In this document: piece by piece, positions 346-54,830 of the stretch | Position numbering within the stretch: the stretch's first letter is position 1 | Layout of the letters: every line of letters starts with the position of its first letter | Notes under the pieces: model-generated | Databases searched by the model: none | The model's input: the letters and a program-made list of their open reading frames with translations, nothing else | Told to the model about the DNA's origin: nothing | Assembly: GCA_000165345.1 (NCBI GenBank) | Contig: CM000436.1 | Location: forward strand, 1,024,001 to 1,088,000 | Direction of reading: 5' to 3' | Length of the DNA: 64,000 nt | Position numbers and translations under genes: made by a program

Positions 346-373
346 TTCCCGCCGAAACGGGTACCGGCGCGCG
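346..373. promoter_or_regulatory. E2F-like GC-rich promoter element (TTCCCGCCGAAA ... CCGGCGCGCG) upstream of gene at 641
   Basis: GC-rich island in AT-rich spacer. Same class as the recurrent TTTGGCGCCAAA sites. Followed by GCGTCTTGTCT, which recurs at 53321. Confidence 0.4.
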
Positions 374-640
374 TCTTGTCTATGAAAAATAGCATGGAAT
401 AAAAAATAATAAAAAGATTGTGAATGGATAAAAGTGGAAATACGTTATTGGGTTTAAAATAATAGTTTGTAAAAAAAGGATTCAAATTAAAAAATATAAG
501 AATAACAGTAATAATAAAATATTAAGAATGTATTTTTTATTAATAATAAAAGGAAATTGAATACAAAATTAATTTAGAAAGAATTAAATAAATTGAATAA
601 TTTAAACAATTAATTAATTGAAAAGAAATTTAATGTCAAA

Positions 641-1477
641 ATGACTGAAAGTAACAGATATAAACGTTTGAGAGTATTTACAGCAGCTTTTAGTATGATT
701 GTTGCTGGAATATGGTGGATTTTGGCACTTTTTTCGAGATCGTATCATTATTTGATAATTTCCTTTCCCATAGGTAATTATCTTTCAATGGATATATCTT
801 TATGGAATATTTGGGCATCTTCCGATTGTAATCCAACAATGTTTAATGGTAGATTAAATTTTGATTTTTGTAGATGGGTTATTTCAAATATAGATGGTAA
901 TTCTATTGGTGAAGTTATGAGATTTCTATGTTTAAGAGGATATGGACTCACTTCAGAAGAATCAAATTGTACAACATTTTCTAATTTATATACAGCTTCA
1001 GCAGCAATGATTTCATCTATTATAATAATTGTTGTATTATTAATTTCAGCTCCTACTTGGCTATTAGTTTTATATTTTAGAGGATCAAAAAAGAAGATTA
1101 GGCCCATTGTACTTACTCAACTACTATTAGCATCTGCAGTTTCATTACTTTCTTTATTTCTCTATACTTCTATTGGTGGGTTTCAGGCTGAATTTAATGG
1201 TTTTAGTCATTCTATTAAAACTAATCGTCTTTCCTCTCTATTCTTCAATTCTTCTACTTTGAATTCAGGTTTTTATATTTCTATTGCTGCTTCAGCTTTA
1301 ACTATTTTCCTTATTCCATGGATCAGTTACATTATCAAAAATATTGAATCTGAAGAATTTGACTCCACTACTTATGTTTCAGCTCTTAAGCAAACTTACT
1401 ATAATTACAGATTGGAGGATGAAATTGCTGAAACTGAGAGATTAATACATAAACTAAGAACTGGTCCTATAATATAA
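641..1477 (+). CDS. hypothetical multi-pass membrane protein
   Basis: 278-aa ATG ORF with 4-5 hydrophobic helices (IVAGIWWILALF, IIIIVVLLISAPTWLLVLYF, LLLASAVSLLSLFLY, ISIAASALTIFLIPWISYII). No family recognised. Confidence 0.4.
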   Translation: MTESNRYKRLRVFTAAFSMIVAGIWWILALFSRSYHYLIISFPIGNYLSMDISLWNIWASSDCNPTMFNGRLNFDFCRWVISNIDGNSIGEVMRFLCLRGYGLTSEESNCTTFSNLYTASAAMISSIIIIVVLLISAPTWLLVLYFRGSKKKIRPIVLTQLLLASAVSLLSLFLYTSIGGFQAEFNGFSHSIKTNRLSSLFFNSSTLNSGFYISIAASALTIFLIPWISYIIKNIESEEFDSTTYVSALKQTYYNYRLEDEIAETERLIHKLRTGPII

Positions 1478-2003
1478 GAGACTACTAATTGTTTTTATAT
1501 TACTTAACTTTGTTTTGTTTATTAATAAATATTTAAATAAGATTGTGGACTAAGATTATTAAGATTATTATTTAAAAAAAAGATAAATTTCTATAGTTGA
1601 TAAAAGTAACGAGAAGATTGTAATCAAATATATACAATTATCCTAAAAATATTAACTTTAAGGCTTATAAATAATAATGCCTATTTAATATTAAGAACCG
1701 CATAAATTTCAATCTTATAAATTATTAAGCCTATAAGATATAAATTTATTAAGGCTTCAAAACTTATTAAATTCAAAGTATTATATTCTTTACATTTTTT
1801 TTTTTATAGATCAAGATTCTTTAATCCTGATCAAAAAATCACCTATATTTACTAATACCATTGGGTATATTGCTTTAGCTCCAATACTAATAAAATATTT
1901 TCTTTCTATTTGTTTTTTCAAAGAAAAAGTTCCTTTTCTTCAATCTCTCTGTTTTTCTTTTCAAATTTGATATTTAATAATCTTTTTTTGACCATTTAAA
2001 TAT

Positions 2004-2014
2004 TTTGGCGGGCT
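2004..2014. promoter_or_regulatory. E2F-like site TTTTGGCGGGC upstream of Prp43 gene
   Basis: Matches E2F consensus TTTSGCGC. About 305 bp upstream of ATG 2319. Confidence 0.4.
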
Positions 2015-2318
2015 TTTGACATTTATATTTAATAATATTAATAATAATAAACTGTAATTAGTTGAAAAAAATATATAAGAGAATTAAATACAAGTAGAAA
2101 AGAAGAATTGAATAGAGAAGAAGCCCTACAATCTATTCTTAGAGTCTTTTGAACAACTCTAAAGGCCTCCCTTTTTTTTAATACAATCAATTAGACTTGT
2201 TAAAAAATTTGAACTCTGTATATATTTAAGACTAATAGTATTAATTGATATCAATTAAGGAAAAAAAAATAGAGAAAGAGATAATAAATATAAAGATAGA
2301 TAAAGATTATAGATAGAA

Positions 2319-53075: not shown

Positions 53076-53295
53076 TTATTTATTTAATTTTAAACAAATA
53101 TTATTATTATGATTAATATTATTAAATTATGAATATGAATATTAATTAATTTAATTTAAATTAACTTTTTTTAATATTTTACTTTTAATACAAATTATAT
53201 TATTCTTTTTGATTAATAAAAATAATTCATAACTTATTACTTTTGTCATTTTTAAACCTTTATTAATTATTCATTATATTAACTAATATTTCCGT

Positions 53296-53331
53296 CTCAA
53301 ACAGGCGGGAAGACGAGTGCGTCTTGTCTCC
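53296..53331. promoter_or_regulatory. E2F-like GGCGGGAA with CGTCTCAAAC and GCGTCTTGTCT co-motifs upstream of RPL7
   Basis: TTCCGTCTCAAACAGGCGGGAAGACGAGTGCGTCTTGTCTCC. GCGTCTTGTCT is shared with 370-380. CGTCTCAA is shared with 31405 and, in reverse, 11320. Confidence 0.4.
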
Positions 53332-54014
53332 GGAAAATATATATATTATGTAAAGATGATTTATGGCTTAAAGTATCTAGATCTTGCAAGTATTTTTTGA
53401 ATTAATGTTTTTTTTATTTTTTTAAAGTATGATTTAATAAAATTAATATTAGTAAGATTGATATGTAATGAACCATATAATTATTAGTAATAGAAAGAGT
53501 AAAATAGTATTGGTATAAATAAATTAGTGGATCTGATGAATTTAGCATAAGAGTGTGACAATAGGAGCATGTAAAATAAAGACTGGATATTTAAGTACAG
53601 AAAAATAATGTAGTGAGACTAAAAGTATTATTCATCTGATAAAAAAATAAAACTAATCTATGATAAGATAATCAAATGGTTTTAATTTTTCGTCAAGAAA
53701 GTTACTGTTTTCATGTATTATTAATATTACCAGAAATAAAAGTAATAATAATAAACAAAAGATCATATAATTAAAGAAAAAAATTGTGAATTGATAGAAT
53801 CTCTAGATTTTTTTTCCTTCATTTCTTTCTTTCTATTTCTTTTTTCTTTTCTTTGTTTTCTTCTTCTGGAATGATTAATAATTTCATTTAAAACCTTTTA
53901 TTAGAGATAACTATTAGCAATTAATTAGTAATAAGTTAAGGCTAAAAGTTGAAATTAATAATTTAAATAAAGAAAAAAAGGAAAAATGTTATGAGATTGA
54001 ATCATTTTCAATGT

Positions 54015-54407
54015 TTAAAAGAAGAAACCAAGGATTTTACCACCAGTGTGTTTTCTTCTTGCCTCTTCTTGGTCCATAATACCATAAGATGTTGACAAAA
54101 CAATGTAACCAAATTGTCTGGATGGAAGTAAATCGGTACTAATTTGCTCAATATCAGATAAAGGAACATCATAACGTGGGGAGATGACTCCACATTTGTT
54201 GAGACGTCCAAGTAATTCAATGCAAATTTTTCCAGCTCTACGATCATCAACAACTTCGAATTCTCCAATATAACCACGTCTCTGCATACATTGTAAGAAT
54301 TTGATAATAACCTTTGAAGAAGGACGAATTAAAACTTGACGACGTCCCATCTTCTCAGCATTTAAAATAGCCTTTAAACAATCACTTAAAACTGAAACGC
54401 GAACCAT
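54015..54407 (-). CDS. RPS15A: 40S ribosomal protein S15a (uS8)
   Basis: 130 aa, near-identical throughout to eukaryotic S15a/S22 ([83 protein letters not shown]). Confidence 0.92.
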
Positions 54408-54817
54408 TTTTTCTGTATTTTTGCTTCTTTAATATAGATATAACACAAATTTCTAATTATGTGGTAACCTGGAGTTGTCCTTTTTTATATATAAATATCT
54501 ATAAATTTTAAACGACTAATTAAAATTTAATTAGGTCAAATTACGCCTTTCAAAAAAAAAGAATTCCTTTTTTTCTTTGTTTAAATTTAATTGATGTTTA
54601 ATACGTATTAATTATTAAAGTAATTTCATTTACCGCTATTAATAATTTAATTTTTATTAATTGATAAAATTAATAACTCATTACATTTATTATATAAATA
54701 AATATTAGTCAATTATTATTTACAATATTTTATTTTCTTTATGCATTTTTTTTTTTTTTAAAGCATTTAATTATAATTTTATTACTATTAATAGAGACGC
54801 CGTCGTCCTAAGTTCAC

Positions 54818-54830
54818 GTTTGGGCGCCAA
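54818..54830. promoter_or_regulatory. E2F-like site GTTTGGGCGCCAA (divergent RPS15A/Nop14 promoter)
   Basis: Lies between starts 54407(-) and 55192(+). Confidence 0.4.

Follow-up and report, generated by a model that had tools for sequence, protein, structure and literature searches.

What is the short GC-rich palindrome that recurs in the AT-rich intergenic spacers of the DNA presented above, and which factor reads it? We pursued this question across the whole stretch, a window of 64,000 nucleotides of Cryptosporidium parvum DNA from what we take to be chromosome 8, the largest one. The element has a core of [C/G]GCGC[C/G] or GGCGGG, its full form is TTTGGCGCCAAA (a core-mutant form would be, for example, TTTGGATCCAAA), and the original prediction had presented it as an E2F-like mark of essentially every promoter-containing intergenic region. 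We found that the GGCGCC-centred palindrome is the E2F-like motif already published for this organism, of which the window is a local sample, and that the sites are very probably promoter elements bound by E2F/DP that drive housekeeping and growth genes.

Enrichment was evaluated against dinucleotide-preserving shuffles of the window. With up to two mismatches, TTTGGCGCCAAA was observed 11 times where 1.43 matches were expected, GGCGCC 13 times (0.36 expected), TGGCGCCA with at most one mismatch 18 times (2.66 expected), and TTTSGCGC 17 times (0.40 expected); the observed counts of all four patterns were reached in no shuffle. When k-mers in the promoter spacers were screened against an order-2 Markov model of those same spacers, GGCGCCAA occurred 14 times versus 0.15 expected (p=4e-23). 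Only poly(A) was stronger and GCATGCA was comparable (p=3e-21), so that calling the element the strongest non-coding signal is fair as far as specific motifs are concerned. Three sites are perfect copies of TTTGGCGCCAAA, and the sequences match the E2F/DP-type consensus TTT[C/G][C/G]CGC, in its ideal form 12 bp long, with a CG core and T/A flanks. Eighteen sites, two of them double, had been listed originally, and all 20 coordinates carry the sequences attributed to them, apart from a matter of strand: the site at 25382 is present, and its plus strand reads TTCCCGCCAAAA, the reverse complement of the TTTTGGCGGGAA that had been given.

The placement of the sites relative to genes was examined on a map obtained by carrying the gene calls of GCA_048859185.1 onto window coordinates via exact 25-mer matching, with window position 1 corresponding to about 1,015,819 of CP141125.1. 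Four ORF (open reading frame) products of the window (fibrillarin, Kri1, a patatin-like hydrolase and a hypothetical protein) are residue-identical to C. parvum proteins. The window is gene-dense, has nearly no introns, and ranges from 21 to 38% GC in 2-kb windows; the transferred map comprises 33 genes, 21 promoter-containing spacers (10 divergent and 11 tandem), and 11 convergent 3'-3' spacers. A relaxed pattern, composed of TTTSSCGS-type half-sites, SGCGCS and GGCGGG, yielded 32 site clusters, with 26 in the 15.4 kb of promoter spacers (1.7 per kb), two in the 3.2 kb of convergent spacers (0.62 per kb, both in one atypical spacer), and four in the 45.3 kb of genes (0.09 per kb), the depletion in genes being seen despite their higher GC content (31% versus 24% in spacers). 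At least one relaxed match was found in 18 of 21 promoter spacers versus 1 of 11 convergent spacers (Fisher p=4e-5), the promoter rather than coding or 3' placement that characterizes E2F/DP-type sites.

The nearest start codon lies 55-705 bp away, mostly 130-500 bp. A position 150-500 bp upstream of starts had been predicted, and this describes the 16 of 18 listed sites that are in promoter spacers reasonably well; it fails for those at 4615 and 4879, which are in a convergent spacer. The listed sites cover 15 of the 21 promoter spacers, and a further site at 46900-46918 raises this to 16, such that the phrase "essentially every" was an overstatement. Among other candidates, the weakest matches, at 35719 (TTGCCGCCC) and 58522 (GCGGGAA), were discounted because they are not conserved, and the GGCGGG at 47187 was excluded as a promoter site because it is inside a U3 small nucleolar RNA (snoRNA) gene. 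A tendency of palindromic sites toward divergent spacers and of asymmetric GGCGGG toward tandem spacers was non-significant (7:3 versus 3:6, Fisher p=0.18), and neither orientation nor symmetry had a significant link to spacer type in the window.

Comparison with orthologous loci of C. meleagridis (L011), C. canis (L013, L016), C. ryanae (L014), C. andersoni (L015) and C. ubiquitum (L012, L017), where synteny is retained, showed that the sites are present in the same spacers of all five species. Each of these has 1.8-2.3 site clusters per kb in promoter spacers and few in genes, while their convergent spacers have none, save for the same spacer between the DEAH helicase and WD40 genes in C. 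meleagridis. Promoter spacers without sites in C. parvum are likewise without sites in C. ubiquitum and C. canis. In MAFFT alignments of the C. parvum spacers with the species other than C. meleagridis, the identity of C. parvum bases was 0.72 inside E2F sites versus 0.43 in the remainder of these spacers (Mann-Whitney p=2.5e-22). The site formed the longest invariant block in the alignments of the Patatin/ELM2 and Kri1/methyltransferase spacers; in the latter, a three-species alignment, the block is ATTTGAC.TTTGGCGCCAA and includes the 40118 site. The C. ryanae Patatin/ELM2 spacer has its GGCGCC shifted to a different position, a turnover that is typical behaviour of transcription-factor sites. 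Judged from these alignments, the sites are under purifying selection across the genus. Flanking sequence differs from site to site, and a repeat or mobile-element origin was rejected: no site falls within the repeats reported, whether the 20 largest direct families or the 25 longest inverted ones, and those shown are coding low-complexity or AT-rich tracts. The individual sites are compiled in Table 1.

Table 1. E2F-like sites and associated features of the window, with base identity inside the site versus the remaining spacer and retention at orthologous places.
Position	Strand	Element	Location	Identity (site vs remaining spacer)	Retention
346-373		TTCCCGCC (346-353), GGTACC (360-365), GGCGCGCG (366-373)	hyp278 promoter spacer, 268-288 bp from ATG at 641		module kept in C. 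meleagridis
2004-2012		TTTGGCGGG	307 bp upstream of DEAH helicase ATG		CCCGCCAAA in orthologous spacers of C. meleagridis and C. canis
4615-4622		TTTGGCGC	convergent DEAH/WD40 spacer, no annotated start downstream		conserved in C. meleagridis
4879-4890		perfect TTTGGCGCCAAA	same convergent DEAH/WD40 spacer as 4615
7459-7467		GCGCGCCAA; GGTACC at 7478	divergent WD40/EF-hand spacer, ATGs at 161 and 475 bp	0.81 vs 0.33
10246-10257		perfect TTTGGCGCCAAA	divergent Patatin/ELM2 spacer, ATGs at 55 and 217 bp
11299-11333		TTTGGCGCCAAA, N6, GGTATC, then GAGAC-GCGCC	481-504 bp upstream of RRM492	0.91 vs 0.38	whole module kept in five species, C. andersoni among them
12873-12908		GGCGCC pair (12873, 12903)	inside RRM492
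15186-15217		20-bp perfect palindrome GGCGCCAAAATTTTGGCGCC, N6, GGTACCGG	divergent hyp443/CBF spacer	0.83 vs 0.32
21312-21337		TTGGCGCGCGCGCCAA, N6, GGTACC	319 bp upstream of rep636 ATG		E2F site and GGTACC both kept in C. ubiquitum
25382-25392		TTCCCGCCAAA	406 bp upstream of hyp911 ATG
26589-26609		GGCGCCAAA, CACGTG directly 5', CCCGGTACT 3'	divergent hyp299/HMG spacer
31377-31395		inverted pair CCCGCC...TTTGGCGG, then CCGTCTCAA	129 bp upstream of SF3b3-like ATG
38510-38548		tandem TTTGGCGCC x2, ACGTG in between, plus TGCCGCCA	170-187 bp upstream of ubiquitin-like ATG
40118-40128		TTGGCGCCAAA	divergent methyltransferase/Kri1 spacer, ATGs at 279 and 267 bp	1.0 vs 0.45
46900-46918		GCCGCCAAAA + GGCGGGCG (absent from the original prediction)	319-337 bp upstream of hyp208 ATG		orthologous place has CCCGCC/GGCGGG clusters in C. 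ubiquitum and C. canis
47016-47289	-	U3 snoRNA gene (Rfam RF01848, 126.5 bits, E=6e-25)
48673-49130		TTTTGGCGGC-ACGTG (48673), TTTTTGGCGCCAAT (48899), GGCGGGAA (49123)	divergent fibrillarin/UCH spacer	0.94 vs 0.56	all three sites in C. ubiquitum and C. canis
53304-53311		GGCGGGAA, GTCTC/GAGAC-type repeats alongside	469 bp upstream of RPL7 ATG	1.0 vs 0.57
54820-54923		TTTGGGCGCCAAC (54820), CCCGCC (54918)	divergent RPS15A/Nop14 spacer	0.94 vs 0.61

The published record on this motif is extensive. The E2F family (5'-TGGCGCCA-3', [C/G]GCGC[G/C], GGCGGG) is the most overrepresented upstream motif family in C. parvum and is conserved upstream of ribosomal-protein genes (PMC3734150); it is located upstream of 161 of 200 co-expression clusters (PMC4117751), is the top motif of peaks from sporozoite ATAC-seq (assay for transposase-accessible chromatin with sequencing), with bidirectional promoters making up over half of these peaks and the motif prevailing in the open chromatin of 5' ends (bioRxiv 10.1101/2025.01.17.633476), and is also the top motif upstream of long non-coding RNAs (PMC7840661). 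Among apicomplexan genera, E2F and DP genes are retained only in Cryptosporidium (PMC12246861), which has two E2F genes (cgd1_1560, cgd6_1430) and two DP genes (cgd7_3650, cgd8_1850; PMC12246861; bioRxiv 10.1101/2025.01.17.633476), none of them within the window.

Taken with the promoter placement and conservation above, these reports point to a mechanism in which a winged-helix heterodimer of the parasite E2F and DP would bind the cores, with their T/A-rich flanks, within nucleosome-free promoter regions about 130-500 bp upstream of start codons, and would drive genes for ribosomal proteins, ribosome-biogenesis factors and splicing factors. Where the spacer is divergent, a symmetric site may serve the genes on both sides. 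That the factor is E2F/DP, and that its binding activates rather than represses, we infer. The targets named in the original prediction were largely recovered, comprising ribosomal proteins (RPL7, RPS15A), nucleolar factors (fibrillarin, Nop14, Kri1 and a CBF/Mak21-family protein), and splicing factors (an SF3b3-like protein and the DEAH helicase). MAD1 was not among them, in that it found no Pfam support at E<=0.05 among the ten ORFs with no or weak Pfam assignment. Likewise, the element had been proposed to be a general or cell-cycle one. The literature, the restriction to promoters and the conservation speak for a general role; a cell-cycle role, by contrast, finds neither a reported pRB orthologue nor stage-restricted expression, as clusters with the E2F motif peak at all time points (PMC3734150), and the neighbours of the sites are ribosomal, nucleolar, splicing and assorted housekeeping genes rather than a pRB/DREAM regulon.

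The flanks of the sites are also non-random, as had been suggested for GGTACC and ACGTG. Within 25 bp of the sites, GGTAC and ACGTG were the top two 5-mers, the former with nine occurrences in flanks versus six elsewhere in promoter spacers (p=5.7e-8), the latter with seven versus nine (p=2.8e-5), and GAGAC/GTCTC was associated with the flanks as well. Motifs of the GAGAC/GTCTC type adjoin E2F sites at 53293-53330, 54794, 48690, 31403 and 11324, upstream of RPL7, RPS15A/Nop14, fibrillarin, the SF3b3-like gene and RRM492, and (A/T/C)GAGAC(A/G) is a published ribosomal-protein promoter motif (PMC11078545).

With GGTACC, the arrangement extends to spacing. At four loci (349-365, 11303-11319, 15201-15217 and 21321-21337) exactly 6 bp separate the GC core from a GGTA[C/T]C that follows it, and at two others the spacing is 13 bp (7478) and 9 bp (26604). 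The RRM492 module, E2F-N6-GGTAYC-N5/9-GCGCC, is retained in C. meleagridis, C. canis, C. ryanae and C. andersoni, and C. ubiquitum has kept GGTACC beside both the 21312 and the 26589 site. Furthermore, a related element, TACCGGAT[T/A]ATA, lies upstream of the U3 snoRNA, its end 26 nt from the mapped 5' end of the RNA, and recurs at 15214, directly after an E2F pair. Tentatively, the E2F site could thus be one half of a composite promoter of fixed geometry, in which a second factor would recognise GGTACC(GG) as a proximal element of the core promoter; the E2F site would then be placed about 50 bp upstream of the transcription start site (TSS). GGTACC/CCGGTA as a Cryptosporidium motif was not found in the searchable text of PMC3734150 (including two supplements), PMC4117751 and PMC1779779 or by full-text search, logos present only in figures being outside this scope. 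The fixed-spacing E2F-N6-GGTACC composite, together with its link to TACCGGAT[T/A]ATA, is the one element here that may be new, and the GGTACC partner and the U3 anchor provide testable handles on E2F/DP binding, the distance from motif to TSS, and partner elements. The U3 snoRNA gene itself is missing from the protein-centred gene calls that we used. The block upstream of it, CTCGAGAACCATCAYCARAACGTGYARTACCGGATTATA, is conserved in C. ubiquitum and C. canis and contains TACCGGATTATA, which ends 26 nt before the 5' end of the RNA and resembles GGTACCGGATAATATAAAA at 15212.

Several points weigh against E2F/DP-bound promoter elements as the explanation. Five of the 21 promoter spacers are without credible sites, and one perfect palindrome, at 4879, is in a convergent spacer and is not conserved, C. 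meleagridis having CCTGACGCCAAA in its place. According to a 2025 review, few such components have been experimentally confirmed (PMC12246861). Direct E2F/DP binding data for the motif were absent from the literature, our search for binding or knock-out studies from 2023-2026 having returned none; what it met was only the E2F promoter, employed as a weak driver. Moreover, with no pRB orthologue reported (PMC3734150), the regulatory logic may differ from that of canonical E2F, and the sites could be either core-promoter or upstream activator sites.

Such considerations leave some room for a functional promoter element that is read by a factor other than E2F/DP, for example a zinc-finger, Myb or uncharacterised ApiAP2 protein, with a coincidental or partial resemblance to E2F. 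This reading would accommodate the lack of experimental binding evidence for E2F/DP in the literature, as well as E2F gene expression that does not closely track that of ribosomal proteins (PMC3734150), and the fixed-spacing GGTACC composites and ACGTG and GAGAC neighbours indicate that other factors clearly act at these promoters. We nevertheless regard it as unlikely, given that the sites match the 12-bp E2F/DP consensus exactly, T/A flanks included, in the only apicomplexan genus reported to have kept E2F/DP, and that the E2F motif has been grouped with targets of known non-AP2 proteins and not with the motifs bound by tested AP2 domains (PMC4117751).

Alternatively, the GC islands could act through DNA or chromatin structure, as nucleosome-positioning or boundary elements, replication origins, or insulators of transcription units in a compact AT-rich genome, a role that would fit their contrast with spacers of 24% GC, the open chromatin at the sites (bioRxiv 10.1101/2025.01.17.633476) and their frequent position in mid-spacer between divergent genes. 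However, it is the exact motif and not GC content that is conserved, other GC-rich k-mers are less enriched, and 10 of 11 convergent spacers have none of the sites, although boundaries or terminators would be needed there as well; the turnover in the C. ryanae Patatin/ELM2 spacer, too, preserves sequence and not position, as transcription-factor sites typically do. A structural role is therefore quite improbable. Finally, a compositional or repeat-derived artefact, in whose favour stands only the usual danger of reading too much into short GC-rich words in an AT-rich sequence, is already refuted by the shuffles, the location outside all repeat families reported, the differing flanks and the conserved orthologous positions, and its probability is negligible.

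Returning to the E2F/DP-bound promoter elements, the promoter spacers that are without them mostly share an alternative. Four of the five (35478-36254, 43741-44397, 58195-58840 and 60952-62277) contain clusters of GCATGC(A) and ATGTGGA[C/T], accompanied in three of the four by (T)ACCGGTA(T), and the TGCATGCA/ATGTGGA/ACCGGTAT module forms a conserved alternative in these spacers, with the combination of GCATGC, ATGTGGA and ACCGGTA also being present at the orthologous spacers of C. ubiquitum and C. canis. ACCGGTAT was observed seven times against 0.17 expected. None of GCATGC, ATGTGGA and ACCGGTA was found within 25 bp of an E2F site in the window. In earlier work, TGCATGYR was linked to macrogamont genes and AP2 factors (PMC11078545), and A[T/A]G[T/A]GGA.A was located upstream of late oocyst-wall genes (PMC3734150). 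This motif set probably marks a stage-specific promoter class of the AP2 type. Motifs of the same types also occur at 4960-5020 and 31070-31110.

The fifth exception, 44932-45056, is a 125-bp gap without an E2F-like site between two small ORFs (177 and 189 aa; 44398-45742), a pair that is annotated as a single gene of 365-368 aa in C. ubiquitum and C. canis. The pair represents one gene with an intron or, alternatively, a dicistron such as those described recently in C. parvum.

Conversely, sites are present where no promoter is annotated. The convergent DEAH/WD40 spacer (4464-5492) is unusually long, at 1,029 bp, and its 4879 palindrome is followed by a block at 4962-5020 that contains two copies of GCATGCA, ATGTGGAC, and CACGTGGGAGGGG; the motifs of the cluster include CACGTG and a G-box. 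C. meleagridis keeps the 4615 site and the AP2-type block downstream of 4879, and C. ryanae and C. andersoni have a short spacer here, devoid of such motifs. The cluster looks like a complete promoter without a gene. A missed protein gene was rejected, as the spacer has no ORF of more than 56 aa, and an Rfam search of the spacer gave no match. By analogy with the published E2F-driven long non-coding RNAs, the spacer most likely harbours an unannotated non-coding transcript. Around the orthologous locus, we also observed that a 214-aa gene call in C. canis ('x214'; L013, 13989-14661) is antisense to the proline-rich (PMPAAP-type) C-terminal repeat of the WD40 protein and is probably spurious, and that the WD40 gene is shorter in C. 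canis and C. meleagridis than in C. parvum.

The second unusual location is inside RRM492 (11814-13292, plus strand), where two GGCGCC hexamers situated 30 bp apart encode Gly-Ala via the rare codons GGC-GCC. Only 2 of the 27 Gly-Ala dipeptides in the window are encoded in this manner (0.13 expected), and C. meleagridis and C. canis have kept both hexamers. This suggests an E2F site pair within the gene and selection at the DNA level, perhaps on an internal or antisense promoter.

One gene of the window drew attention for reasons of assembly. The gene at 18895-20993 (minus strand) contains an array of 30-nt tandem repeats (19599-20099), and its length varies with the assembly: the window version has 2,099 nt, is out of frame and is split into two ORFs, and other versions have 1,911 nt (636 aa) and 2,433 nt (810 aa). 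Ambiguous bases (N) are located close by, at 18546-18548 and 18971. The out-of-frame version and these nearby ambiguous bases suggest that the window sequence is an older or collapsed assembly of a polymorphic repeat.

As for known systems, an overrepresented upstream motif of the E2F type in C. parvum is reportedly credited to Bankier 2003. The sites analysed here and the published C. parvum family (Oberstaller et al. 2013, PMC3734150; Xiao et al. 2025 preprint) share organism, cores and promoter location, both occur upstream of ribosomal-protein genes, at bidirectional promoters and ahead of non-coding transcripts, and nothing essential differs between them. Reports of the motif go back to 2003-2013 and have recurred since, the 2025 ATAC-seq study having strengthened them, and no new concept is added here; the local additions are the accounting by spacer (16 of 21), the genus-wide footprinting, and the GGTACC partner at fixed spacing.

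Sites of ApiAP2 type (TGCATGCA, G-box) resemble the E2F-like ones in being short palindromes in compact AT-rich spacers, and TGCATGCA is about as enriched in the window. Their sequence is different, however, the literature assigns them to a different factor family, and they are mostly in different spacers of the window. The CDE/CHR promoters (cell cycle-dependent element/cell cycle genes homology region) bound by DREAM/MuvB likewise combine an E2F-like element with a second short element at fixed spacing, but their partner is TTYGAA at 4 bp, whereas here it is GGTACC(GG) at 6 bp. CDE-N4-TTYGAA as an architecture for these spacers was rejected, with a single N4-TTCGAA instance, at 38518.

Outside the genus, the sites resemble the canonical E2F/DP sites of animals and plants (TTTSSCGC), which are similarly 12 bp long and promoter-proximal, with a symmetric CG core and T/A flanks, and which also occur in both palindromic (TTTGGCGCCAAA) and asymmetric (TTTGGCGGG, TTCCCGCC) forms. 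A structure of E2F4-DP2 bound to DNA is credited to Zheng et al. 1999 (cited in PMC3734150). The animal and plant sites mostly belong to genes of the G1/S cell cycle and DNA replication that are under the control of pRB or DREAM. Here, by contrast, the motif is on most housekeeping promoters, no pRB orthologue has been reported, and expression peaks at all stages. Much of the housekeeping and early asexual transcription of the genus appears to go through an ancient E2F/DP system that was lost in other apicomplexans.

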